64,000 nucleotides of DNA from a virus. Lineage: Duplodnaviria; Heunggongvirae; Uroviricota; Caudoviricetes. Of this stretch, positions 770-50,161 are shown in pieces. The position numbers were made by a program, and so were the translations under genes. A model generated the notes under the pieces. It did no database searches, was not told where the DNA came from, and was given only the letters and a program-made list of their open reading frames with translations. The first letter of the stretch is position 1; each line of letters starts with the position of its first letter. The DNA lies in the IMG/VR virus record IMGVR_UViG_2639762884_000001; one strand, 5' to 3'.

Positions 770-1206
770 TCAATACAATAAAATGGCCCCATTTGGATGG
801 GGCCGGTAACAACTAGCATTATGGGCGCTGGTTGACGTACTCAATGATCGCTTCGATGATTGCGAACATAGGCGGCACGATTTTGAAAAGTAAGTTAAGC
901 ACTATAGGCCTCACTTAGTTTTATCGCACCTAGCTGCAAATACCTTTGAGCTTGCCTTTGCAGTTGCAATATCTGTAGTCGCCAGATACTTACGGCACGA
1001 TTTCGAGTTAAGGTAAGGTTTTAGAGTCACCAAAAACCTGGACTTAAATCTTCTTTGAGAACAACGATGTTTGGTAAATGGTCATTATTACCTAGCATGA
1101 CGGCTCAACGTTTCTTGATGAATCCAGTACATTCGGTTAATCTTAGCTCAGTCGCCAGATACTTATGGCTCAGGAACAGAGGCGCAAACTCTGTTTCCTT
1201 TTAAAA

Positions 1207-1235
1207 AGCCCAGCCTAGTCAACTGGGCTTTTTTA
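1207..1235. terminator. bidirectional Rho-independent terminator-like hairpin
   Basis: AGCCCAG...CTGGGCT stem flanked by an A-run upstream and TTTTTT downstream. Confidence 0.7.
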
Positions 1236-1529
1236 ATGTCCGTTTTTAACCAAATGTACCCACAATACCGCAACATCAGTGTCTTGCGAATTAAGATAGG
1301 ATTTATAGAGACTATGTGCAAGTGCATAACTTTGTGGATAACTCGTAAAGGAAAAAGTGGTTTCCGCGGACATTAGTTCAGACAAGGAGTCTGGGAAAGT
1401 CAATGGGAAGTAAAAATTTGTTAAAAATAACGTTTGTTGGAATTGTATATATTTATGCCTTTCAATAGTTAGCATCTTATTAACATCTTTTTTAAGAGAT
1501 AGAGTTCAAAAATATATAGCTTCAACATA

Positions 1530-1549
1530 TACTGTATGCATATACAGTA
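1530..1549 (+). promoter_or_regulatory. LexA (SOS) box
   Basis: TACTGTATGCATATACAGTA: perfect CTGT-N8-ACAG palindrome with AT-rich spacer, 17 nt upstream of the ATG at 1566. Confidence 0.8.
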
Positions 1550-1565
1550 TTAAGAGGCGAGTATT

Positions 1566-1955
1566 ATGGGCTTCCCTTCTCCTGCGGCGGATTATGCTGA
1601 GAGCCGTATTTCTCTTGATCAGCAGATAATTAGACATCCTTCAGCGACCTACTTCATGAGGGCGGCTGATAGTCATCATCGTGAGGGAATATTGCAGGGT
1701 GCATTGCTGGTGGTCGATTCCTCACTGACTCCTGTTGATGGATCTCTTCTTGTATGTGCTCTGGATGGGGAATATCGCGTAAAAAGATACCGGAAGTATC
1801 CACGTCAGCATCTGGAGGATTTAAGAACTGGTAAGAAGGAAGCATTGCCAAAGGATGATGATGGATGCACGGGCAGCAATGCCGTGTTTGGTGTGATCAC
1901 TCACATTATCAACGACGCAAGAAGTGGCGAGTTTGATGATTGTCCTGTGATGTAG
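1566..1955 (+). CDS. UmuD'-like S24 (LexA/UmuD family) peptidase domain protein lacking the N-terminal arm
   Basis: GFPSPAADY...HPSATYF and retained Ser (AADSH) and Lys (RVKR) align with UmuD from its Cys24-Gly25 cleavage site onward; AAGAGG RBS at 1552-1557; in-frame stop at 1551-1553 prevents a longer N-terminus. Confidence 0.75.
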   Translation: MGFPSPAADYAESRISLDQQIIRHPSATYFMRAADSHHREGILQGALLVVDSSLTPVDGSLLVCALDGEYRVKRYRKYPRQHLEDLRTGKKEALPKDDDGCTGSNAVFGVITHIINDARSGEFDDCPVM

Positions 1956-1967
1956 GAGAACTGTTTA

Positions 1968-1992
1968 GGTGGTGCATTGCACCACCTTTTTA
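1968..1992 (+). terminator. Rho-independent terminator
   Basis: GGTGGTGC-ATT-GCACCACC hairpin followed by TTTTTA, between convergent umuD-like and apbC. Confidence 0.7.
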
Positions 1993-3093
1993 TCACACTG
2001 CGCGGAATGCGATTTCGCCAGGTATTACTTCACCTTGCCAATACATTTGGGCAGCAACGCGATCTGCGAGGTCACGATAAATAGCCGTAAATTCGCTATC
2101 TGGACGACTAATAACGGTTGGTGTTCCGTTATCCAGATCTTCACGAAGAGAGATATGAAGTGGCATTTGGCCTAACAACTGCGTGTTGTATTTCTCGGCC
2201 AGTTTCTGTGCGCCACCGGTGCCAAAAATTGGCTCGTGATGACCGCAGTTACTGCAAATATGCACACTCATGTTTTCGACGATACCTAGTACCGGCACTT
2301 CGACTTTTTCGAACATCACAATGCCTTTCTTCGCATCGATCAGCGCGATGTCTTGCGGCGTAGTTACCACAACCGCACCAGTTACAGGAATGTTCTGCGC
2401 CAGCGTCAATTGAATATCACCAGTGCCCGGCGGCATATCGAGAACGAGATAGTCCAGATCAGGCCACAGTGTTTCCTGCAACATCTGCATCAGCGCCTTG
2501 CTGGCCATCGGTCCACGCCACACCATTGCATTGTCGTCGGTGACCAGATAACCAATAGAGTTGGTTGCCAGGCCATGAGACATGATAGGTGCCATGTGAG
2601 TACCGTCCGGTGAGGTTGGACGTTGGTTTTCCGCGCCCAGCATGGTTGGAATTGATGGACCATAGATATCGGCATCCAAAATACCAACTTTCGCACCTTC
2701 AGCAGCCAAAGCCAGTGCCAAGTTTACTGCTGTGGACGATTTGCCTACACCGCCCTTGCCTGAGCTTACGGCGATAATATTCTTAACACCATTAATGCCT
2801 GGTTGGTTTTTGACGCGCTTAAGCGTGGCAATGTTGTACGACAGCTTCCAGTCAATAGCCTTTGCGCCAGTGATACGGAGCAGATCACCACTACATTGCT
2901 CTTTCAGGTCTTCAAAAGACTTATTCCACACGAAAGGCATGATTAGTTCGACATGCAGTGTGTCATCCATCAACGCAACATGGTGTAACGCTTTAAGCGT
3001 AGTCAGGTTGTGTTTCAGGGTTGGGTGCTGAAAATTAGCCAGCGTACCGGCTACCATTGCTCTCAGGGCATCCGGCGATTTGGACTCGCTCAT
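1993..3093 (-). CDS. apbC: Fe-S cluster carrier ATPase ApbC/Mrp
   Basis: 366-aa product nearly collinear with E. coli ApbC (Walker A SSGKGGVGKSS, CSNCGHH motif); divergent from metG as in enterobacterial chromosomes. Confidence 0.95.
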   Translation of the reverse strand: MSESKSPDALRAMVAGTLANFQHPTLKHNLTTLKALHHVALMDDTLHVELIMPFVWNKSFEDLKEQCSGDLLRITGAKAIDWKLSYNIATLKRVKNQPGINGVKNIIAVSSGKGGVGKSSTAVNLALALAAEGAKVGILDADIYGPSIPTMLGAENQRPTSPDGTHMAPIMSHGLATNSIGYLVTDDNAMVWRGPMASKALMQMLQETLWPDLDYLVLDMPPGTGDIQLTLAQNIPVTGAVVVTTPQDIALIDAKKGIVMFEKVEVPVLGIVENMSVHICSNCGHHEPIFGTGGAQKLAEKYNTQLLGQMPLHISLREDLDNGTPTVISRPDSEFTAIYRDLADRVAAQMYWQGEVIPGEIAFRAV

Positions 3094-3250
3094 CCCGTCT
3101 CCTTTATTTTAATTTGCGCAATTGTCGCCTTGTAGTGTACTCCAGCTACGACATTTAATCATTTATGAGAAATGCTGTTATCACATGGCAGACATAAGGC
3201 CATTTTGTTACTATCAAGCCCCTTTTCACTACAAAGAAGTAATGCCTACT

Positions 3251-5284
3251 ATGACCCAAGTCGCGAAGAAAATTCTGGTGACGTGCGCGCTGCCGTACGC
3301 TAACGGCTCAATCCACCTCGGCCATATGCTGGAGCACATCCAGGCTGATGTCTGGGTTCGTTACCAGCGAATGCGCGGCCACGAGGTTAATTTCATCTGT
3401 GCCGACGATGCCCACGGCACACCGATCATGCTGAAAGCACAGCAGCTTGGTATCACACCGGAACAGATGATTGGCGAAATGAGTCAGGAACACCAGACTG
3501 ATTTTGCAGGCTTTAACATCAGCTATGACAACTATCACTCGACGCACAGCGAAGAGAACCGTCAGTTGTCCGAGCTTATCTATACTCGCCTGAAAGAGAA
3601 CGGTTTTATTAAAAACCGCACCATCTCTCAGCTGTACGATCCGGAAAAAGGCATGTTCCTGCCGGACCGTTTTGTGAAAGGCACCTGCCCGAAATGTAAA
3701 GCACCGGATCAATACGGCGATAACTGTGAAGTCTGCGGCGCTACTTACAGCCCGACTGAACTGATCGAGCCGAAATCGGTAGTTTCTGGTGCTACGCCGG
3801 TAATGCGTGATTCCGAACACTTCTTCTTTGATCTGCCTTCTTTCAGCGAAATGTTGCAGGCATGGACCCGCAGCGGTGCGTTGCAGGAGCAGGTGGCAAA
3901 CAAAATGCAGGAGTGGTTTGAATCTGGCCTGCAACAGTGGGATATCTCCCGCGATGCGCCGTACTTCGGTTTTGAAATTCCGAACGCACCGGGCAAATAT
4001 TTCTACGTCTGGCTGGACGCGCCGATTGGCTACATGGGTTCCTTCAAGAATCTGTGCGACAAACGCGGCGACACTACCAGCTTCGACGAATACTGGAAGA
4101 AAGACTCCACCGCCGAGCTGTACCACTTCATCGGTAAAGATATCGTTTACTTCCACAGCCTGTTCTGGCCTGCCATGCTGGAAGGCAGCAATTTCCGCAA
4201 GCCGACCAACCTGTTTGTTCATGGCTATGTGACGGTGAACGGTGCGAAGATGTCCAAGTCTCGCGGCACCTTTATTAAAGCCAGCACCTGGCTGAATCAT
4301 TTTGACGCTGACAGCCTGCGTTACTACTACACTGCGAAACTCTCTTCGCGCATTGATGATATCGATCTCAACCTGGAGGATTTCGTTCAGCGCGTGAATG
4401 CCGATATCGTGAACAAAGTGGTTAACCTGGCCTCCCGTAATGCAGGCTTTATCAACAAGCGTTTTGACGGCGTGCTGGCAAGCGAACTGGCTGACCCGCA
4501 ACTGTACAAAACCTTTACTGATGCTGCTGAAGTGATTGGTGAAGCATGGGAAAGCCGCGAATTTGGTAAAGCGATTCGTGAAATCATGGCGCTGGCTGAT
4601 CTGGCTAACCGCTATGTCGATGAACAGGCTCCGTGGGTGGTGGCGAAGCAGGAAGGGCGCGATGCCGATCTGCAGGCGATTTGCTCTATGGGCATTAACC
4701 TGTTCCGCGTGCTGATGACGTACCTGAAACCGGTACTGCCGAAACTGACTGAACGTGCAGAAGCATTCCTGAATACAGAACTGACCTGGGATGGTATCCA
4801 GCAACCGCTGCTGGGCCATAAAGTGAATCCGTTCAAGGCACTGTATAACCGCATCGACATGAAGCAGGTTGAAGCACTGGTGGAAGCATCCAAAGAGGAA
4901 GTAAAAGCCGCTGCCGCGCCAGTAACTGGCCCACTGGCAGATGATCCGATTCAGGAAACCATCACCTTTGACGACTTCGCCAAAGTTGACCTGCGCGTGG
5001 CTCTGATTGAAAACGCGGAGTTTGTCGAAGGTTCTGACAAACTGCTTCGCCTGACGCTGGATCTCGGTGGCGAAAAACGTAATGTCTTCTCCGGCATTCG
5101 TTCCGCTTATCCAGATCCACAGGCACTGATTGGTCGTCACACCATTATGGTGGCCAACCTGGCTCCGCGTAAAATGCGCTTCGGTATCTCCGAAGGCATG
5201 GTGATGGCTGCTGGCCCCGGCGGGAAAGATATCTTCCTGTTAAGCCCGGATGCTGGTGCTAAACCAGGCCACCAGGTTAAGTAA
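3251..5284 (+). CDS. metG: methionine--tRNA ligase
   Basis: 677-aa product starting [26 protein letters not shown] (HIGH motif), KMSKS present, C-terminal tRNA-binding domain; near-identical to E. coli MetG as recalled. The track ORF start at 3122 is an upstream in-frame extension. Confidence 0.97.
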
Positions 5285-5303
5285 TTAAGCAACCATTCTT
5301 CAC

Positions 5304-5333
5304 AATGCCCGGCAATACGCTGGGCATTTTCAT
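5304..5333 (+). terminator. metG terminator hairpin
   Basis: AATGCCC...GGGCATT stem followed by a T-rich tract. Confidence 0.6.
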
Positions 5334-5445
5334 TTAGACACAATCCCTTCTGATTTACACATACCCTAAAACAATTTGTTTTCTGCCTTTTGTTGATTGA
5401 GATAATAAACCACATAAGAAAACAACTTGTTTTGGAGTGGTTTAA

Positions 5446-5745
5446 ATGTTGAACATTACCCAAGCCTACCAGGTGGCATTGATCAGCTCATCTCATACAT
5501 CAGAGGAAGATGCTCGCCGATTCATGATCGCAAGCAATGAGCTGGATTGGGTTTCACAAATTGAGTACGGTTGCATTGTCCACGCCGGGTTACAGGACGA
5601 TGACTGGAAAGATGAGTTGCGTCGATATGGTATATCCGAGGGCGCGATTGCGAACATTCAGAAAGTACTTGATGTAGGCTTTGACTCTGTACATTTTGAT
5701 TGTGGCGCACCGGTCGTTGAAGGGCTTGAGTGCTGGCAATGGTAA
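5446..5745 (+). CDS. hypothetical protein (99 aa)
   Basis: ORF with GGAG RBS; class A palindrome at 5418-5433 immediately upstream. Confidence 0.5.
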   Translation: MLNITQAYQVALISSSHTSEEDARRFMIASNELDWVSQIEYGCIVHAGLQDDDWKDELRRYGISEGAIANIQKVLDVGFDSVHFDCGAPVVEGLECWQW

Positions 5746-5781
5746 TCCGGCAATCGCTTCATACTAGATAACGGAGAATTT

Positions 5782-5967
5782 ATGCTTAAAGAAGACTCAT
5801 ATCTACTAAAGGCGCTTGAAATGCGTGGCGTTGAACCTACAGTGAAAAACGCCCACGATATCTACCTTCAGTTTTCACCGGAGCTGAAACGGCTCATAAA
5901 TCAATACGGGGTTAATGACTCAAGTGTTAAAGCGATGATAGATGATGAATTAGACCATCTTATCTAA
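5782..5967 (+). CDS. hypothetical protein (61 aa)
   Basis: ORF with ACGGAG RBS spaced 7 nt from ATG. Confidence 0.45.
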   Translation: MLKEDSYLLKALEMRGVEPTVKNAHDIYLQFSPELKRLINQYGVNDSSVKAMIDDELDHLI

Positions 5968-14561: not shown

Positions 14562-16121
14562 CTAATCTCGTTTCAGAACTCCAAAATCGAATGCTCCATC
14601 AATAGGCAATACACCTTCTGCAAAGCCAGGTGTGGTGTCGATGATGTGTTTTCGCTCATAAGAGTGAGACAACAGGTATTTGTTGCTAATGTCAATGAAA
14701 TCAGTGATAAAACACACGTTTGCCTGATTTTTTTTGGCTCGTAAGCCACGACCGACACGCTGTCTCATTTCAACTTCTGCTTTCCCACCACCAGCAAGAA
14801 TGACCGCACCAACGCTTGGCACATCAACACCAACATCCAGAATAGTCGAGCCTATTAAAACATCTATTTCACCAGACGCTAAACTGTTCAGCTTTGCTTG
14901 CCTTGTCGTCTGGTTAGATTCCCCATAGATGAAATCAACTCTAAGACCTGACTCCTTCATCATCTCCATCAGGATTTGCCCGTGGCGTTTAAGACGAACC
15001 AGAGTCATGCAGTTGAGTGAATGTTGCTTATAAAGCAATGCCTCGCGCACTATGGCCTCGTTACGTCCCAAATTATACACGATCCCCAACTGATAAGCCT
15101 TTTGGTAGGCGGTGCTCATACCAACTCTAAAATTGAGATGTTTGTTGGCAAGTTCGGCCTTGATTCTGGCCTCGTCTGGCTTGTAGGCAACTTTATGATA
15201 AAGGAAGTACGGCTTTGCCAGAATGCCTCGATCAATCAGGTACTTTTCTGTGACTTTAATTTCAATTCGCCCGGCCACCGCCATCAGGCGCATGTTGGCT
15301 TCCGTCGAATCCTTCATGAACGGCGTGGCTGTAAGCGCCAGACGATAGTCTGCGTTCACACATAATCTGGCGATGTCATAGAAATTTGAGCCTGAAGACT
15401 CATGCGCCTCTTCCAGAATAAGAAGAGAGACACTTGAAAGGAAGCGTTTCACCAACTCCCGACGTTTGAGGTGGTAGCTTTTCTTATCTGGTGTTGCATC
15501 GCGTGGTGGTTCTTCGAGGAAACTTGCAAGAGTTTGAACTGTAGCGACGTTGATATGTCGTGATACCTGGAACTCACCCGAGCCAATGACTCCAACCTTT
15601 TGGTCTTTTAACCACGGTTCGCCATTTTTGGCGCGGTAGTCGATGGATCTCTGGAAGTTTTCGGCCATTTGAAACATCAGAACAGAGCGGGTTGTTAAAA
15701 ATAATGTCATTCGACCGATACGTGCAGCTGCTTTGCAGGCAACATTAGATTTCCCGCCACCAGTAGCGATCTGCGCAATCATCATTCCCTCTCGAACCAG
15801 TGTTTCCACAGTCTGATCCTGATACGCATAATCAGGATTGTATGGGAATGGGTTAACCGCCGGATTTGGTTTTCCAAGCGCCGGGGCTTTGTCTTTGCGG
15901 ATATGAACACATTTGATGCCCGCCTTGTTCAAGTTCGCCGCTACAGGCTTGGCAAAGCCTGCAGGGAACGAGTTTTTACTCCAGTTGAACATTGTGCTTG
16001 TGCCCTTCCAGTCGCCAGTCTCGACTTCGTAGCTCAACATCTGTTGCACCAGTTGCTTTACCTTGTCATCTGCGCCAGAAATAAGCGCATTAACTGCGTT
16101 AGATACAATCCGAACAGTCAT
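14562..16121 (-). CDS. superfamily 2 (DEAD/DEAH-type) helicase
   Basis: Walker A IATGGGKS, motif II LILEEAHE, motif III TATP, and a C-terminal helicase domain. Confidence 0.8.
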   Translation of the reverse strand: MTVRIVSNAVNALISGADDKVKQLVQQMLSYEVETGDWKGTSTMFNWSKNSFPAGFAKPVAANLNKAGIKCVHIRKDKAPALGKPNPAVNPFPYNPDYAYQDQTVETLVREGMMIAQIATGGGKSNVACKAAARIGRMTLFLTTRSVLMFQMAENFQRSIDYRAKNGEPWLKDQKVGVIGSGEFQVSRHINVATVQTLASFLEEPPRDATPDKKSYHLKRRELVKRFLSSVSLLILEEAHESSGSNFYDIARLCVNADYRLALTATPFMKDSTEANMRLMAVAGRIEIKVTEKYLIDRGILAKPYFLYHKVAYKPDEARIKAELANKHLNFRVGMSTAYQKAYQLGIVYNLGRNEAIVREALLYKQHSLNCMTLVRLKRHGQILMEMMKESGLRVDFIYGESNQTTRQAKLNSLASGEIDVLIGSTILDVGVDVPSVGAVILAGGGKAEVEMRQRVGRGLRAKKNQANVCFITDFIDISNKYLLSHSYERKHIIDTTPGFAEGVLPIDGAFDFGVLKRD

Positions 16122-16166: not shown

Positions 16167-16186
16167 ATAGGTAAGTGATTACTTAG
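16167..16186. promoter_or_regulatory. class B palindromic motif (ATAGGTAAGTgatTACTTAG)
   Basis: In the divergent intergenic region between the helicase operon and the ParB-like gene. Confidence 0.5.
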
Positions 16187-16884
16187 TGGATTGTAGCAAT
16201 AAAATGGATGTAAAAATCACGATTTTGCAGGTTGATGTTGCCAACCTTCGCCCGAATACCTGGAACACCAATTCGGTTGGTGCGCAGAATTTTGAAAAAC
16301 TGAAAGGTTCTATCGAAAAATTGGGCTTTTTTAAGCCAATTTTGGCTCGTGAACTTGAAGATGGATTTTTTGAAATCCTCGGCGGCGAACATCGCTGGCG
16401 TGCCGCTATTGAGCAAGGAATTTCAACGGTTCCAGTGCTTTCTGTGGGCAAAATTAGCGATGTCGTAGCTAAACAGATGTCACTGGTGGACAACGAGCGA
16501 TACGGTGAAGACGACCAAATCGCATTGCAACGCTTCATTGAAGAAATTCAGTCAGAACTTGACTATCAACTGTCTGAAATCGCCCCGTATGACGACGAAA
16601 TCTCGATGGTTTTAGCAAAAGAGGCGGCAATCGACCTTGAAGCACTGGAGGCGTTGTCTCGTGGTAGTGATGAGCCTGTCGATACCGACAAACGAGAGAA
16701 AACCGAACGTGTGGGGGCGGAACATCAGACCATGCGCTTCAAAGTAACTTTCGATGCGTCAGATCGTGTTGCAGAAACCATAAAAAACATCATCAAAGAG
16801 CAGGCTATTAACACCGGTAATGAAATGGAGAACGCTGGTGAGGCTCTGGTGTGGCTGGTCGACTACTACAAGGAGCGTATGTAA
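16186..16884 (+). CDS. ParB/Srx-like N-terminal domain protein 1
   Basis: ILGGEHRWRAA matches the ParB/sulfiredoxin GxxRxxA box; acidic C-terminal half. Track start is GTG; ATG at 16204 is an alternative. Confidence 0.7.
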   Translation: MDCSNKMDVKITILQVDVANLRPNTWNTNSVGAQNFEKLKGSIEKLGFFKPILARELEDGFFEILGGEHRWRAAIEQGISTVPVLSVGKISDVVAKQMSLVDNERYGEDDQIALQRFIEEIQSELDYQLSEIAPYDDEISMVLAKEAAIDLEALEALSRGSDEPVDTDKREKTERVGAEHQTMRFKVTFDASDRVAETIKNIIKEQAINTGNEMENAGEALVWLVDYYKERM

Positions 16885-17552
16885 TGACCAAAAAGTTTGA
16901 AATCGTATATCGCGACCCGGCAGATCTTATTCCCTATGAGATGAATGCCAAAAAGCATGATGAACAGCAGATCCGAGATCTAGCCGCAGCCATTAAAAAG
17001 CGCGGATTTGACCAGCCAATTACGGTCGATAAGAACGACGTAATTATTACTGGCCACGGCCGCCGTGAGGCTGCAATTTTTGCTGGACTTGAGCGCGTAC
17101 CGGTTATTGTTCGCGATGATCTCAGTGATGACGAGGTTCGTGCGAAGCGCCTTGAAGATAACCGACTTGCCAGCATTGATTACGATGCAATTAAGCTACA
17201 GAAAGAGCTTGAGTCGCTTGTTCTGGACGATATCGAGGTTTTCGGCTTTGAAGAGCGTGAGTTGAATGTTCTCGTTGGCAGCATGACAGAAGAAATGGAC
17301 ACCGACTCGCTAGTTATCGATCTTGGCGAAGAAACTAAACGACAGAAGGATGAACACACCGAGATCAGTCGTGAAGTTGCAGCGGAAGAAGTACGTGTTG
17401 TCGACGTATTGGGCTTTAAAACGCTTCCTGCTGGCTCTGCCATTGTTGTTGGTGATTTGCTTGCCCACATGGAAGAAATGACGGGAGAAAGCGGGGTAGA
17501 CGCATTTGTGGCATATGCGGAGAAGATCTCTTCCGGGGAGATGGCTGCATGA
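16884..17552 (+). CDS. ParB/Srx-like N-terminal domain protein 2
   Basis: IITGHGRREAA ParB box; AAGGAG RBS; start overlaps the preceding stop (TAATG). Confidence 0.7.
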   Translation: MTKKFEIVYRDPADLIPYEMNAKKHDEQQIRDLAAAIKKRGFDQPITVDKNDVIITGHGRREAAIFAGLERVPVIVRDDLSDDEVRAKRLEDNRLASIDYDAIKLQKELESLVLDDIEVFGFEERELNVLVGSMTEEMDTDSLVIDLGEETKRQKDEHTEISREVAAEEVRVVDVLGFKTLPAGSAIVVGDLLAHMEEMTGESGVDAFVAYAEKISSGEMAA

Positions 17553-18214
17553 GCAAATACATCATCAACGTATCGTTTCAGACACGCGTAAATAAAACCA
17601 CGCGCACGTTGGAAATCGCTGAGTCGTTCGGGCTTGGCCTGGACGAAAAAGAGTGGACGCTTTACGACAATCTGGAGCTGGAAGTGAAGCAGGGCGATGT
17701 GGTGTACATCACCGGCCAATCCGGTTCCGGCAAATCCGTTGTGCTGCGCGAGTTGCAACGACAGATGAAGGATGAAGGGCTGTCTGTAGCCTCCATCGAT
17801 GATTTTACCTTCGATAATGAGGTTAACGTCATCGATCAGTTGGGCAAAACGACCAGCGATGCGCTTGGGTTGTTATCTATGGCTGGTCTGAACGATGCAT
17901 ATCTGTTTGTTCGCAAGCCTTCTGAAATGTCAGACGGTCAGAAATATCGTCTCAAGATTGCCAAACTGATTGAGTCAGGCGCTAAAGTGTGGGCTGCTGA
18001 CGAGTTCGGTGCTGTTCTAGACCGTGTAACCGCTCAGGTTGTGGCATCTAACCTCCAGCGTGCCGCTCGAAAGGTTGGTGCGACGGTAATGGTGGCGACG
18101 ACTCACGAAGACCTGAAGAACGCGCTGCGCCCGGATATGCAGATCACCAAGCACTACAAAGAACGCGTGAAGGTGGAATATCACAATGGTAGTCATGATG
18201 AGGTTCATTTATGA
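17549..18214 (+). CDS. soluble ABC-type ATPase
   Basis: Walker A GQSGSGKS, signature-like MSDGQKYRL, Walker B VWAADEF, H-loop ATTHE; 221 aa with no transmembrane domain. Confidence 0.8.
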   Translation: MSKYIINVSFQTRVNKTTRTLEIAESFGLGLDEKEWTLYDNLELEVKQGDVVYITGQSGSGKSVVLRELQRQMKDEGLSVASIDDFTFDNEVNVIDQLGKTTSDALGLLSMAGLNDAYLFVRKPSEMSDGQKYRLKIAKLIESGAKVWAADEFGAVLDRVTAQVVASNLQRAARKVGATVMVATTHEDLKNALRPDMQITKHYKERVKVEYHNGSHDEVHL

Positions 18215-19101
18215 CGGACATCATCATTAAACGCTACCGCCCTGAAGAGTTTCCGCGTCATCTGGACTTTCTGGAGCGAATGACTGTCACAAAGGGAACT
18301 GTAGAGGACTGGCACGCTCTTAAGTCGCTTCACTACAAAACAGACGGCAAACCTTTCGCGCCAACTTACTATCGCTGCGAACTTGATGACCGTCTGGTGG
18401 GCGTCGTGGTTATGGCTTACCCGAAACTACTGCTGGCACCTCGCCACCGCATGTTTCCTAAGTTGAAACCAACCACTAATACCACCGTGGCTAACCAGTA
18501 CTGGGGTCGGTACGTGAATAACAACTTTGCGGTGATCAGTCGCTCAGTTGTGGATACTCAGTATCGTGGCGTAGGCGTCTCTTATCGAATGATTAACCTG
18601 GTTAGCAGGATGCATGACCGGCCAATCATTGAGATCCAGTCCTCGATGAGCAAATACAATCCCTTCGCCATGAAAGCAGGGTTTAAGTTCATCCGCCCTG
18701 AGCGACCGAAGAGCTATGAAAGTGCACTGCGTGTATTCCAGCGCCATTTCCGTTCCGACCCGGGTGATAACGAGGCGATCGTCAAAGAGTTGTTCGCAAT
18801 GAGCGAGTCTCGTCGTCGCCGTGCACTGCGTGATCTGGTGGCGGACTACCACAAGAACAGTTCCCTGGCAAAAGCTGGGCGGAATCGTGGCACGACGATT
18901 CAGGACATTGCCGACAGTCTGGTGGACGAGGCCAGCATTGTGAAGCTGCTCAAGGACATTCACAACCTGAGCTTTACGTCTCCGTTGTATGGTGTGTACC
19001 GAAACCCTGACTTTGGCCGTCGACTGCCTGACACGCTGCCACTGCTGGCATTCGACAAACAACCTTTGGATAAACCGTTAGAAATTGCTTTACCGGCATA
19101 A
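18211..19101 (+). CDS. GNAT-fold acetyltransferase-like protein
   Basis: Motif A QYRGVGVS (Q/R-x-x-G-x-G) and downstream NPFAMKAGFKF; roughly 120-aa C-terminal extension. Confidence 0.55.
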   Translation: MTDIIIKRYRPEEFPRHLDFLERMTVTKGTVEDWHALKSLHYKTDGKPFAPTYYRCELDDRLVGVVVMAYPKLLLAPRHRMFPKLKPTTNTTVANQYWGRYVNNNFAVISRSVVDTQYRGVGVSYRMINLVSRMHDRPIIEIQSSMSKYNPFAMKAGFKFIRPERPKSYESALRVFQRHFRSDPGDNEAIVKELFAMSESRRRRALRDLVADYHKNSSLAKAGRNRGTTIQDIADSLVDEASIVKLLKDIHNLSFTSPLYGVYRNPDFGRRLPDTLPLLAFDKQPLDKPLEIALPA

Positions 19102-19110
19102 GGATTTGCC

Positions 19111-19377
19111 ATGACGTTAACCGATAAACAAAAGGACATCATCAAAACGCTCAATCTCGGTTATGAGCGAGGTCATCTACTTGACCTGGACGAATTGCTT
19201 GAAGTTTTGCCGTACAAGACAACCAAGCAAAGTATCCAGTTCTCAATTCGCGCTCTGATAAAAAAGGGGCTGGTGGAGAAAGGGCATACGCGCCAACGCA
19301 GTGACAATCGCTATCACCGCCGAACTCTTGGGTTAACCACTTTAGGTCGAGCCAAAGCGAAGTTACTGGTGATGTAA
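19111..19377 (+). CDS. small winged-helix-like DNA-binding protein (putative regulator)
   Basis: 88 aa; helix-turn-helix-like segment TKQSIQFSIRALIKKGLVEK followed by a basic tail. Confidence 0.45.
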   Translation: MTLTDKQKDIIKTLNLGYERGHLLDLDELLEVLPYKTTKQSIQFSIRALIKKGLVEKGHTRQRSDNRYHRRTLGLTTLGRAKAKLLVM

Positions 19378-19400
19378 TCGGTCTGGGAGCTTATTTAAAG

Positions 19401-19457
19401 ACCTGCATCTGTATATATAAATAATAAGTAACTTATTAAATATATACGGAAGCAGGC
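19401..19457. repeat. 57-bp imperfect palindromic element, copy 1
   Basis: acctgcatctgtatatataaataataagtaacttattaaatatatacggaagcaggc; core ATAAGT-A-ACTTAT; near-identical copy at 51400-51455. Confidence 0.8.
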
Positions 19458-19492
19458 TTCGTAAGACATGCCAGACCTAATTAAACACCCCA

Positions 19493-19533
19493 GAAAACAA
19501 GTTGGTTAGCAGATGCAGTAAACAAGTTGTTTT
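19493..19533. promoter_or_regulatory. two class A half/full sites upstream of the small terminase gene
   Basis: gaaaacaagttgg (19493-19505) and gtaaacaagttgtttt (19518-19533). Confidence 0.5.
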
Positions 19534-19572
19534 AGAGCGCATGGACGCGCTCTGTGTGTTTTAGAGGGATCT

Positions 19573-20205
19573 ATGACGGTCGAAAAAGACGAGGTAAAAA
19601 CTCGCCTGACACCAGCGGAGTGGGCCGAAGCTGAAGCCAAATGGACGTCAGGCGAATATACACTCTCAAAGCTGGAGGAAGAGTACGGCATTCGTCGTGA
19701 AACACTCTCCAGACATTTCAAAAAGCGAGGATTAGAGAAAGGCGCGGACTCTGTTGGGAAGATGGTTCGTGAGTCTCTTAAATCTGACGCAGAGCTTCGC
19801 GCTAAAGCCCGTGCGGAAAAGATAGAAGAACGTCGTACACGTTATGACGGCTGGGCGTATGCGTTGGGGCAGATGGTGATGGTCGAAGTCACTACGGCCA
19901 AACGTGAGGGGAAGCCTTTAGGGGCGATTGAGGATTCTCTCAAGAGCTTACAGAGAGCCAGTAATACCCTTGCAAAATGCTTTGAAGTTTCGTCCAAAGC
20001 ATTGGGCATGGATCATGCGGAAAATGACGAGGAAGAAATTCCGAACCTGGTATTTGGTGAGCTTACGCCTTCCCAGGTGGCGAAATTACGTCAGGAAGAC
20101 GACGAGCCTGAAATCATCGATGACGAATTGCTTGAGACGTTGGAAGAAGAAGCTCTAAGCGAATTTGATGCGACAGATGATGGAAGTGAAGGGGAGGACG
20201 AATAA
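19573..20205 (+). CDS. terminase small subunit (putative)
   Basis: HTH-like N-terminus, basic middle, acidic C-terminus; directly precedes and overlaps the large terminase start. Confidence 0.65.
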   Translation: MTVEKDEVKTRLTPAEWAEAEAKWTSGEYTLSKLEEEYGIRRETLSRHFKKRGLEKGADSVGKMVRESLKSDAELRAKARAEKIEERRTRYDGWAYALGQMVMVEVTTAKREGKPLGAIEDSLKSLQRASNTLAKCFEVSSKALGMDHAENDEEEIPNLVFGELTPSQVAKLRQEDDEPEIIDDELLETLEEEALSEFDATDDGSEGEDE

Positions 20206-21461
20206 TGGCAATCCCGTCCTCGCTCAGTCTTGTGCAACTGCATTCTGGACAGATGAAAGTCTTCCAGTCTCCGCATCGATTTAAAGTTGTTTGTGCTGGT
20301 CGACGCTGGGGAAAATCCCGGTTGTCGATCTCCACTATTATTCGTGCGGCGGCAAAGGAAAAAAAGCAAAGGGTCTGGTATGTCGCTCCTACTTACCAGA
20401 TGGCTCGCCAGATTTTGTGGGACGATCTACAGGAAGTTCTGCCTCGTAAGTGGGTTAGGAAAAAGAACGACACCACGATGACAATCGTGTTGAAGAACGG
20501 TTCGGAGATCGCCCTCAAAGGTGCTGATAAGCCTGACACTCTACGCGGCGTAGCGTTGCATTTTGTAGTGCTTGATGAATTTCAGGATATGAAGGCTGAC
20601 ACCTGGTACAAGGTGTTACGACCTACTCTTTCATCGACACGCGGCGGTGCACTGATCATTGGTACGCCAAAAGGCTTCTCGGAATTTCACAAACTGTGGA
20701 CTATAGGCCAGAACGTAGAGCTGCAAAGAAAGGGACAGTGGAAGAGCTGGCAGTTTGTAACTGCCGATTCTCCGTTTGTGCCTACGGCGGAAATTGAAGC
20801 TGCTAAGAACGATATGGACCCGAAATCGTTCGCTCAGGAGTACCTGGCGAGCTTTGAGAACATGTCCGGGCGCGTTTACTACCCGTTCGATCGTAACGTG
20901 CATGTAAAACCGCTTCAGTTCAACCCTCGGTTGCCTATATGGGTAGGGCAGGACTTCAACATTGACCCGATGTCTTCCGTAATTTTGCAACCTCAGCCAA
21001 ATGGTGAGCTATGGGCAATTGATGAATTGGTGCTCTTTTCCTCTAACACGGCAGAGGTTTGTGATGAGCTTGAGAGACGCTTCTGGCGCTGGAAATCACA
21101 GATAACGGTATTTCCAGATCCGGCAGGTGCTTATCGCCAACATGCTCGCGGGGAGTCTGACGTCGACATATTCAAAGAGAAGGGATTCTTACGTGTCGAT
21201 TATTCGAAAAAGCACCCGCCAATTGCGGATCGTGTTAATGCTGTTAACCGAATGCTGATGACCGCATCTGGAGATATCCGGCTGTATATCGATCCGAAGT
21301 GCAAGCATTTGATTGATTCACTGGAAAAAGTCATCTACAAGCCTGGAACACGAGATATGGATAAGACAGGTGGCATTGAGCATAGTGCAGACGCATTGGG
21401 CTATCCAGTACATCGTAGGTATCCAGTCAAAAACCGTGTTATTCTTGGTGGTTCTCGATAG
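20205..21461 (+). CDS. terminase large subunit
   Basis: Walker A CAGRRWGKS, Walker B VLDEFQD, C-terminal nuclease-type acidic motifs (FPDPAG). Confidence 0.85.
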   Translation: MAIPSSLSLVQLHSGQMKVFQSPHRFKVVCAGRRWGKSRLSISTIIRAAAKEKKQRVWYVAPTYQMARQILWDDLQEVLPRKWVRKKNDTTMTIVLKNGSEIALKGADKPDTLRGVALHFVVLDEFQDMKADTWYKVLRPTLSSTRGGALIIGTPKGFSEFHKLWTIGQNVELQRKGQWKSWQFVTADSPFVPTAEIEAAKNDMDPKSFAQEYLASFENMSGRVYYPFDRNVHVKPLQFNPRLPIWVGQDFNIDPMSSVILQPQPNGELWAIDELVLFSSNTAEVCDELERRFWRWKSQITVFPDPAGAYRQHARGESDVDIFKEKGFLRVDYSKKHPPIADRVNAVNRMLMTASGDIRLYIDPKCKHLIDSLEKVIYKPGTRDMDKTGGIEHSADALGYPVHRRYPVKNRVILGGSR

Positions 21462-49133: not shown

Positions 49134-49802
49134 ATGACCAAGATCTTTGTGGTTGGCGGCACAAAGGGCGGGCCTGGCAAATCCACCGTTGCCCAGCAAA
49201 TTGCCGTTTGCCTGAAAGTCAAAAAGAAGAAGAAGGTTTATATCACCGATATAGATATTCAGCGCACGACAACGAGCTGGTGTGAAGACCGTCGACAGAA
49301 CGAAGATCTTGAGCTGATTCCTTTTGCATACGTTCAAGATGACATCATTAAGCACCTAAAATCGCTTCAGGGTAGAGCTGAGTATGTAGTGGTAGATGCT
49401 GGTGGCTTTGACTCCGAAATTCAGCGACAAGCGATGCTGATGGCCGACGTTATCATTATCCCGCTGCGTCCTAAGCGTCGTGATTTGAAATCTTTACGTG
49501 ACATCGATCCTATTATCGACAATGTTCGCAATGTAAACGACAAAGTGAAAGTCCGCGCGGTCATGAACCAATGCCCGGCTTTGCCATCACAAGTGTCTCG
49601 CATTCTAGCGGCTAAAGAGATTGTCGAGACGTTTGGCATCGAGTCTGCGCCAGTCAATCTATATAACCGCAACGTCTATGATGATGCGGAAGAGTCTGGT
49701 CGTTCTATCTTTGAAATGACCGGTAGCGAGCGCGACAAAAAGGCGGAAGCCGAGTTTGAAGAATTTGTAGATTATCTGTTGAGTCTGGAGGAAGAAGAAT
49801 AA
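49134..49802 (+). CDS. ParA/MinD-family partition ATPase (small type)
   Basis: Deviant Walker A GGTKGGPGKST, VVVDAGG Walker B-like region; 222 aa. Confidence 0.8.
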   Translation: MTKIFVVGGTKGGPGKSTVAQQIAVCLKVKKKKKVYITDIDIQRTTTSWCEDRRQNEDLELIPFAYVQDDIIKHLKSLQGRAEYVVVDAGGFDSEIQRQAMLMADVIIIPLRPKRRDLKSLRDIDPIIDNVRNVNDKVKVRAVMNQCPALPSQVSRILAAKEIVETFGIESAPVNLYNRNVYDDAEESGRSIFEMTGSERDKKAEAEFEEFVDYLLSLEEEE

Positions 49803-50161
49803 TGTCCATGAAAATGGGTGACCTAGCAAAGCGCAAAGAGCCTGATGCACCGGCTAAGAACACAACTCCTTTGCGCCAACCAATCAGACCACAGGGACGC
49901 CCGACTCGTGGCAAAGAGAAAATTAAAAGCCGCACGATGTCACTGGAAGACGAATACTTCGAACTGCTGGAGATGATGAAGTTCATCCCTCGCTTCGAGA
50001 AGTTCACCCGTTCTGACGTGATTCGCGCAGCCATTTTCCATCTGGCAGAGAAGTCACCGCAGGAAATCGAGGACATCGTGAAACTTAACGAGGCGATCAC
50101 TGCTGCCGATGTCACGATGCGTACCGATGAAATTAAACGCGAGTTAATGAAGAAAGGTTGA
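49802..50161 (+). CDS. small partition-associated DNA-binding protein (ParG/ParB-like, putative)
   Basis: 119 aa, basic disordered N-terminus and helical C-terminus; translationally coupled to the ParA-like gene (TAATG). Confidence 0.5.
   Translation: MSMKMGDLAKRKEPDAPAKNTTPLRQPIRPQGRPTRGKEKIKSRTMSLEDEYFELLEMMKFIPRFEKFTRSDVIRAAIFHLAEKSPQEIEDIVKLNEAITAADVTMRTDEIKRELMKKG

Follow-up and report, generated by a model that had tools for sequence, protein, structure and literature searches.

Upstream of the terminase genes of an SSU5-like phage-plasmid of E. coli, represented here by a window of 64,000 nucleotides (IMG/VR virus record IMGVR_UViG_2639762884_000001; positions refer to this whole stretch), four genes encode two ParB-fold proteins (ParB1 and ParB2), a soluble ABC-type ATPase and a GNAT-fold protein. 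Comparison across viruses supports the view that these genes form a real, conserved functional unit. Judged by their sequences, the ABC ATPase and the GNAT protein are the split form of the uncharacterised COG2401/'MK0520' ABC-GNAT family, and the unit as a whole is a three-component system (ParB, ABC and GNAT) whose ParB component is duplicated in the SSU5 lineage.

A preliminary description of this DNA had called the cluster an undescribed four-gene combination. The full-text literature yielded no description of the module or of ABC-GNAT function, although an earlier computational mention is possible; the claim of novelty stands to that extent, but a three-component system with a duplicated ParB is not a unique four-gene set. 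Nor are the genes uncatalogued: PHROGs 723, 930, 293 and 886 cover them, and ABC and GNAT together are of the COG2401/'MK0520' type. The basic layout was described correctly. The ORF listing places four open reading frames (ORFs) on the plus strand at the positions given in Table 1, upstream of the genes for the small and large terminase subunits (TerS and TerL), and the reading frames overlap by 1 nt at ParB1/ParB2 and by 4 nt at both ParB2/ABC and ABC/GNAT. The co-occurrence of these genes across phages, raised there as a question, is borne out by synteny, adjacency and triple gene fusions.

The ABC ATPase and the GNAT protein as one split family

The ABC ATPase scores 50.1 bits against Pfam ABC_tran (PF00005; cutoff 25), and its motifs are intact: Walker A (GQSGSGKS), the signature (MSDGQKYR), Walker B (AADEF) and the H-loop (TTHEDL). 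By class it is a transporter-type nucleotide-binding domain (NBD), the closest NBDs in the PDB reaching only E~1e-13. No permease or other membrane partner is encoded in the operon, and the relatives examined are fused to GNAT, ParB or family B DNA polymerase (PolB), never to a transmembrane domain. A second 'ABC transporter' of Escherichia phage Cyrano, CYRAN_75, was considered as a relative and proved to be unrelated to the window ABC.

In the GNAT protein, core residues ~20–165 adopt the GNAT fold and are followed by a family-specific helical/beta extension of ~130 residues (170–296). The motif for binding the pyrophosphate of acyl-coenzyme A (acyl-CoA) reads YRGVGVS, in which R119 and G122 do not vary across 27 sequences; its equivalent is RGIGLG in fused relatives and QGIGLG in Orf25 of Lactococcus phage P335. 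Against Pfam the protein remains below the gathering threshold (Acetyltransf_10, E=0.037, 14.4 bits vs 23.6), and some fused relatives reach E 1e-5. A search for a solved structure of a close relative returned none (best E 0.98). The structural neighbours comprise dozens of protein and small-molecule acetyltransferases, including RimI, Naa10/50/60/80 and one diamine N-acetyltransferase; the DNA-modifying enzyme Mom is one among many. Neither Pfam nor PHROG matched the protein to Mom, and membership of the Mom family finds no support beyond the generic GNAT fold. Domain scans detected no tRNA-binding or RNA-binding domain in either the ABC or the GNAT protein.

A plain homologue search with the window ABC returned only near-identical enterobacterial clusters. 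The fusions were revealed by a scan of IMG/VR and by a GNAT-family profile that was searched against 1.84 billion representative proteins and found 865 relatives. Beyond the SSU5-like clade, the longer relatives listed are nearly all 440–500 amino acids (aa) long and carry the GNAT region in their C-terminal half. Their N-terminal halves match the window ABC at E 1e-40 to 1e-63, a much stronger similarity than the window ABC has to any transporter, and fused relatives match the window GNAT at E 1e-10 to 1e-24. In about 65 fused proteins, matches to the window ABC and then to the window GNAT follow each other in the same order, and PHROG 11143 (357 aa) likewise matches both the ABC half and the GNAT half. 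Across 26 fused proteins the equivalents of the Walker A, signature, Walker B and H-loop motifs, together with the GNAT motif, show no variation; the catalytic motifs are invariant in the split set as well.

In the source databases, homologues of the window ABC and GNAT carry names such as 'ABC-type ATPase with predicted acetyltransferase domain' or 'MK0520'. The assignment to COG2401/'MK0520' rests on domain order, fused relatives and these source names. Members of that type have the ABC domain followed by the GNAT domain, as in the window. They differ from the window in that the latter has separate, translationally coupled genes, the ~130-aa C-terminal extension of GNAT and two ParB paralogues upstream. 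A search for functional data on the COG2401/'MK0520' family found none. Close fused relatives occur in metagenome-assembled genomes (MAGs) of Bathyarchaeota and Thaumarchaeota; in the genome scan the relevant loci are L094–L102, those from L103 onward being ordinary ABC transporters.

The ABC-GNAT junction, at which the window genes overlap directly, is an insertion hotspot. SSU5 (SSU5_128, L002 7994–8248) and Klebsiella relatives have an extra 84-aa ORF between the two genes, and other relatives have one to three small ORFs there (Phage_gp49_66, RyR-domain, DUF2829; e.g. L003 6961–7999, L008 5393–5895). In the fused protein P0162 the ABC domain itself is interrupted by an intein (Hint and LAGLIDADG).

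The ParB proteins and their linkage to ABC-GNAT

Both ParBs exceed the gathering cutoff of Pfam ParB_N (PF02195; 26.3 bits), with 49.9 bits for ParB1 and 35.0 bits for ParB2. The boxes ILGGEHRWRAA and IITGHGRREAA, on which the preliminary description had based its ParB/sulfiredoxin assignment, are present in the translations; ParB1 has the motifs GGEHRWRAA and VDNERYG, and ParB2 has ITGHGRREAA and LEDNRLA. Each protein thus contains a nucleotide-binding GxxRxxA box and an ENxxR-like box, of which the G, H/R, R and N residues are invariant across the family alignments, and binding of nucleoside triphosphates (NTPs) is predicted from sequence. ParB1 may alternatively start at ATG 16204, which is used in the Cyrano annotation. 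ParB2 begins at ATG 16884, which is both annotated and conserved as its start codon; the ORF listing extends the frame to GTG 16851.

Neither ParB matches HTH_ParB in Pfam at E<=0.1, in agreement with the earlier remark that no centromere-binding helix-turn-helix (HTH) is obvious. Against Spo0J, ParB and Noc structures in the PDB, ParB1 reaches E 1e-9 to 1e-7, with only the N-domain aligned reliably. A further domain is nevertheless conserved: in the family alignments both consist of an N-domain, a poorly conserved acidic linker and a conserved C-terminal domain of ~50 residues. The two families align over 206 columns (hhalign, 99.2%), which marks ParB1 and ParB2 as full-length paralogues. In an AlphaFold2 model of ParB1 (overall pLDDT 60.9), residues 10–101 are folded, residues 102–189 have pLDDT<50 and residues 189–231 form two helices (pLDDT 76–90) that come after a conserved 'RFKV' segment. 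This C-terminal beta-alpha-alpha unit might be a ribbon-helix-helix-like dimerisation or DNA-binding domain, which we offer as a suggestion only because the model is only moderately confident and its alignment shallow. Screening the module for repeats that resemble parS gave nothing convincing apart from the intergenic palindrome described below.

Within the lineage of ~105–120-kb siphoviruses, gene order is kept at 41–47% protein identity: a helicase gene on the minus strand, then ParB1, ParB2, ABC, zero to three small variable ORFs, GNAT, a winged-helix gene, a gap, TerS, TerL and portal. The carriers include SSU5, Pseudomonas phage nickie, Rhizobium phage RHEph10 and phages of Stenotrophomonas and Xanthomonas, and the same order is found in elements of Ectothiorhodospira, Chitinibacter and marine samples. 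Vertical inheritance alone could explain synteny within one lineage, and the decisive evidence for linkage comes from unrelated viruses.

In at least six unrelated phage groups, a ParB2-type gene lies directly before ABC(-GNAT), usually just upstream of the terminase. Streptococcus phage phiNIH1.1 encodes a ParB2-like protein (p24), the ABC ATPase (p25), an unannotated GNAT fragment, an ASCH protein and TerL, in this order. Lactococcus phage P335 has ParB (Orf23), ABC (Orf24) and a mini-GNAT (Orf25), followed by TerS and TerL. The fused form follows ParB in Gordonia phage BiggityBass (gp1 ParB, gp2 ABC-GNAT, gp3, gp4 terminase) and Pasteurella phage Pmp13 (ParB, ABC-GNAT, TerS, TerL), and ParB lies directly before ABC(-GNAT) in Arthrobacter phage EastWest (gp74, gp75) and Leptospira phage LE3 (gp16, gp17, TerL). 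ParB also directly precedes ABC(-GNAT) in a planctomycete genome; in a thaumarchaeal provirus the order is ABC-GNAT, ParB, one ORF and TerL. ParB2 is the type of ParB that adjoins or is fused with ABC-GNAT in other viruses, and p24 of phiNIH1.1 is closer to ParB2 (3e-24) than to ParB1 (7e-7). The N-domain of ParB2 also resembles that of ParB-methyltransferase fusions (phrog_498, 5e-32; PADLOC MTase_II, 2.9e-17).

Linkage extends to single polypeptides. Three viral contigs (L065, L070 and L085) encode proteins of 666–692 aa in which ParB, a Zn ribbon, ABC and GNAT are joined, with a domain order equal to the gene order in the window. In L085 the triple fusion is followed by a 168-aa ORF, a TerL gene (E~1e-121 to the window TerL) and a portal gene. 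The same contig encodes, in divergent orientation on the minus strand (4508–5893), a ParB1-like ParB of 461 aa with the motif GEHRWRAA, a genuine HTH_ParB and a Cys-rich C-terminal region. Because this ParB1-like protein carries HTH_ParB, we suggest that ParB1-type proteins supply DNA binding where they are present. The arrangement, kept in other lineages at 41–47% identity and as gene fusions, is far beyond chance.

Two small ORFs of Firmicutes phages can be reassigned in this context. In phiNIH1.1, an unannotated 89-aa ORF between p25 and the ASCH gene p26 (L010 5783–6052) is a GNAT fragment with the motif QGVGLG; in P335, the 126-aa Orf25, annotated 'unknown' (L179 4633–5013), is a mini-GNAT of the same family.

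Genomic setting of the module

The scan of IMG/VR retrieved 80 loci with the fused ABC-GNAT family, whose nearest cellular counterparts are in MAGs of Bathyarchaeota and Thaumarchaeota. In 39 of the 80, ABC-GNAT has TerL as its direct neighbour, and in 47 TerL lies within three genes, figures that are lower bounds because some large neighbours may be intein-containing terminases. The loci are interrelated, and independent support has to be counted in separate lineages. In L021 and L060 the TerL ORFs measure 825 and 989 aa, about twice the normal length, and possibly bear inteins.

Association with DNA polymerase takes two forms. Metagenomic proteins P0210 and P0182 (1260 aa and 791 aa) are fusions of family B DNA polymerase, ABC and GNAT, and in Enterococcus phage 9184 (L180 3905–5346) the ABC gene follows the real DNA polymerase gene. 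The product of ORF024 of this phage, annotated as a second 'DNA polymerase', is the GNAT half. In Gordonia phage BiggityBass and Porphyromonas phage008a, which are unrelated, the gene immediately after ABC-GNAT is formyltransferase-like, and its product would be another N-acylating enzyme repeatedly associated with the module. The BiggityBass protein, gp3 (L011 1823–2473), is annotated as 'tRNA-methyltransferase' and is actually formyltransferase-like (Pfam Formyl_trans_N, 7e-10); its homologue in phage008a occupies the same position (L177 ~5086–5559; jackhmmer, 2.6e-47).

In the window, module and TerS are separated by a non-coding gap (Table 1) that contains an AT-rich palindrome (19402–19456) with a second palindrome nested in it (19414–19446), as well as direct repeats at 19491–19507 and 19516–19532. 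The GenBank records of SSU5 and Cyrano are linearised at 19439|19440, inside the palindrome, and a gap of 134–334 bp is kept at the same position in distant relatives. The region is a candidate cos or pac site, late promoter or other regulatory region. On the left, the UvsW-type helicase is the conserved neighbour of the module in the SSU5/Nickie/RHEph10 lineage (L003–L005, L007–L009, L100). The winged-helix gene that follows GNAT is kept only in the SSU5/Nickie lineage (L003–L005, L007, L008), and its 88-aa product may be a fifth member of the module or a regulator.

Table 1. Genes and non-coding features in and around the ParB-ABC-GNAT module of the window.
Feature	Position	Strand	Size	Assignment and remarks
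UvsW/DEAD-type helicase	14562–16121	−		Pfam ResIII/DEAD/Helicase_C; divergent; listed as context, membership in the unit not implied
ParB1	16186–16884	+	232 aa	GTG start; Pfam ParB_N 3.3e-13; phrog_723 2e-79
ParB2	16884–17552	+	222 aa	ATG start; Pfam ParB_N 1.5e-8; phrog_930 1e-112
Soluble ABC-type ATPase	17549–18214	+	221 aa	Pfam ABC_tran 5.8e-13; phrog_293 6e-59
GNAT-fold acyltransferase-like protein	18211–19101	+	296 aa	PHROG 886
Winged-helix-like protein	19111–19377	+	88 aa	phrog_900 1.9e-45; weak LexA_DNA_bind and Lrs14/Sta1 matches
Non-coding gap between module and TerS	19378–19572		195 bp	Palindrome, direct repeats, terminator-like hairpin
TerS-like DNA-binding protein	19573–20205	+		phrog_867 2e-100; 'Terminase small subunit' in the Cyrano annotation; context
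TerL, large terminase	20205–21461	+		Pfam Terminase_6N; PHROG TerL; portal gene next downstream

Over the 2.9 kb of the cluster, nucleotide identity is 100% with ~110-kb E. coli plasmids, 99.6% with Cyrano and 85.6% with Salmonella phage SSU5. The region is carried by 757 plasmids in PLSDB, mainly from Klebsiella (292), Escherichia (218), Enterobacter (91), Yersinia (62) and Salmonella (49). Elsewhere in the window, at ~800–4100, correspondence with CYRAN_99 and CYRAN_100 (Cyrano record 89738–93029) indicates a gene for a MinD-like ATPase and one for a methionyl-tRNA synthetase of full length, the latter an unusual cargo for a phage-plasmid.

Possible functions of the module

The comparative evidence favours a DNA-directed role: the module is encoded next to the terminase, and some viruses have it adjoining a DNA polymerase or fused with one. 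We tentatively propose that it may act as an ATP/NTP-gated acyltransferase on phage DNA before packaging. In such a mechanism, ParB1 and ParB2, each with a putative small C-terminal dimerisation or DNA-binding domain, would load on replicated phage DNA in an NTP-dependent manner. ParB2 would recruit or activate the ABC ATPase, whose ATP-driven dimerisation would position the GNAT domains on the DNA. GNAT would then move an acyl group from acyl-CoA to an amino group, most likely of a DNA base, and the resulting mark would label or protect the genome just before packaging by TerS/TerL. The same logic is seen in ParB-assisted DNA modification (DpdB/DpdA, DndB, ParB-dependent thymine dioxygenases and ParB-methyltransferase fusions) and in TmcA, and these systems provide a precedent for the model.

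A phage ParB that lacks a DNA-binding domain is needed by a thymine dioxygenase (5mYOX) for its action on double-stranded DNA (PMC13229309). That ParB shares with those of the window an NTP-binding N-domain and a C-terminal domain, the lack of an obvious HTH, an adjoining enzyme gene and a location near terminases; the enzyme there is an Fe/2OG dioxygenase, whereas the window has ABC-GNAT, with a pair of ParB paralogues and an additional ATPase. The ParB fold also occurs fused to methyltransferases and to an acetyltransferase (PMC12704722), and DNA-modification systems include the ParB-like proteins DpdB and DndB (PMC12839542, PMC10853773). Both the Dpd and the Dnd system pair a ParB-like NTPase with a DNA-modifying enzyme, and Dnd additionally uses an ABC ATPase, DndD. 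Their catalysis, by a transglycosylase and by PAPS-reductase-like sulfur insertion, is unlike that of a GNAT. DndD is an SMC-like ABC protein with a coiled coil, in contrast to the compact transporter-type NBD of the window, and the Dpd and Dnd systems are linked to host defence, whereas the present module is virus-encoded and terminase-linked. The phrog_498 ParB-methyltransferase fusions have the N-domain closest to that of ParB2 and typically lie upstream of the terminase (e.g. in Javan prophages). The window module has no methyltransferase domain, and its candidate enzyme is instead a GNAT acting in trans with an ABC ATPase.

Two GNAT enzymes that act on nucleic acids are relevant for comparison. 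TmcA and NAT10 are P-loop ATPase-coupled GNATs that make N4-acetylcytidine in RNA, TmcA acting on tRNA cytidine; in common with the window pair, they combine an ATP-hydrolysing P-loop domain with a GNAT, which acts on a nucleic-acid base. Mom of phage Mu is a GNAT-fold enzyme of DNA adenine modification that is not known to need ParB or ABC partners. By Pfam and PHROG the window GNAT has no sequence-family relation to it.

Several observations weigh against an acyltransferase directed at DNA. The window GNAT resembles Mom no better than it does dozens of other acetyltransferases or GNATs in general. DNA as the GNAT substrate is itself a tentative proposal, and adjacency to the terminase fits a packaging role equally well. 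In most of the archaeal-virus-like contigs, ABC-GNAT lies beside TerL with no ParB nearby, so ParB is not obligatory. In Firmicutes phages the GNAT has shrunk to 89–126 aa. A terminator-like hairpin with a T-run (19533–19554) lies between module and TerS, and the searchable literature contains no report of base modification in SSU5-like phages.

An alternative is a role as a packaging accessory, in which the ParBs would mark or process the packaging site or concatemer, and ABC-GNAT would regulate packaging through acetylation of a protein (e.g. terminase, portal or a DNA-bound nucleoid-associated protein) in place of DNA. ABC-GNAT tightly adjoins TerL across bacterial and archaeal viruses, the module abuts the conserved gap with the palindrome in which the SSU5 and Cyrano records are linearised, and many of the GNAT structural neighbours, such as RimI and the Naa enzymes, are protein N-acetyltransferases. 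We nevertheless regard this role as rather unlikely: in Enterococcus phage 9184, P0210, Nonlabens phage P12024S and Arthrobacter phage EastWest the family members lie beside or fused to DNA polymerase or far from the terminase, the phages already encode a TerS-like protein, and we found no precedent for an acetyltransferase requirement in packaging. Were the target instead RNA, aminoacyl-tRNA or a small molecule (e.g. polyamines or nucleotides for DNA condensation), the established ATPase-coupled acetylation of tRNA cytidine by TmcA would be a parallel. The formyltransferase-like neighbours recall Met-tRNA formyltransferase and PurN, the gene after the ABC/GNAT pair in phiNIH1.1 encodes an ASCH (PUA-like) protein, and GNATs include polyamine acetyltransferases, in keeping with the diamine N-acetyltransferase among the structural neighbours. 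Against such targets, which we consider improbable, stand the partner folds (ParB, terminase and DNA polymerase), all of which handle DNA, and the failure of the domain scans to detect a tRNA- or RNA-binding domain in ABC or GNAT.

The module might also serve anti-defence or host takeover, in which case an ATP-gated acetyltransferase would inactivate a signalling nucleotide or a host protein involved in immunity or regulation, and the ParBs would be NTP sensors or NTPases. In conflict systems, ABC ATPases are commonly sensor or energy modules coupled to effectors, ParB/Srx proteins act in conflicts as nucleases and NTPases (PMC12839542, PMC10853773), and an anti-defence role has been suggested for ParB-fold fusions, which are enriched in prophages (PMC12704722). 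The variable small ORFs inserted inside the module in relatives fit this picture as well. PADLOC, on the other hand, reported nothing specific: the GNAT had no match, the ParBs matched only the N-domain of MTase_II models and the ABC only generic P-loop/ABC models. A catalogued defence system was rejected on this ground, and the preliminary description was right to find no match to a characterised one. Anti-defence genes are usually variable accessory genes, whereas the module keeps its place in the ~100–120-kb siphoviruses, of whose core it is a deeply conserved, vertically inherited set, and lies beside TerL in archaeal viruses; we consider this reading distinctly unlikely. Least credible of all are a set for plasmid partition or maintenance and an ABC transporter 'moron', to which the database names 'ParB-like partition protein' and 'ABC transporter' and the plasmid-prophage nature of the replicon would point. 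Canonical ParABS shares with the window the ParB N-terminal fold with its GxxRxxA motif, but it has HTH_ParB and an adjacent ParA, neither of which is present here. A separate partition module had been placed at 49134–50161; a ParA/MipZ-type ATPase gene is indeed found at 49134–49802, 32 kb from the ParBs, whose neighbours are the helicase and the ABC ATPase, but the 'ParG' label for the adjoining 119-aa ORF (49802–50161) is tentative, this ORF being without a Pfam match. The partition set was rejected for these reasons and because the module also occurs in chromosomally integrating or otherwise non-plasmid phages (Streptococcus pyogenes prophages, Lactococcus P335 and phages of Gordonia, Leptospira and Pasteurella). 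The transporter annotation was rejected on account of the missing permease and the fusion of ABC to GNAT elsewhere.

Taken together, the kind of system is known, that of ParB-assisted, ATPase-coupled systems that modify nucleic acids, and this set of components is uncharacterised. The widest version of the DNA acylation proposal, which we consider speculative and rather doubtful, is that ParB-ABC-GNAT is a virus-wide ATP/NTP-gated machine for DNA N-acylation that places an acyl (e.g. acetyl) mark on the bases of viral genomes directly before packaging, both in bacterial and archaeal tailed viruses and in the phage-plasmids of pHCM2/pMT1 type known from Salmonella Typhi, Yersinia and Klebsiella. 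Hundreds of phage-plasmids of clinical Enterobacteriaceae, including Klebsiella, E. coli, Yersinia and Salmonella, carry the module. It extends to archaeal viruses and to phages of Firmicutes, Actinobacteria, a spirochaete and Bacteroidetes, at least four more groups of bacteria. With its few components and its split and fused forms, it is directly testable in E. coli. Acyltransferases would join methyltransferases, dioxygenases and transglycosylases as a further class of enzymes helped by ParB-fold NTPases. If the substrate is a packaging protein, the module would constitute a new regulatory step of terminase-driven packaging; if it is DNA, viral genomes would bear a mark of a new class, with consequences for restriction evasion, host range in phage therapy and sequencing artefacts.

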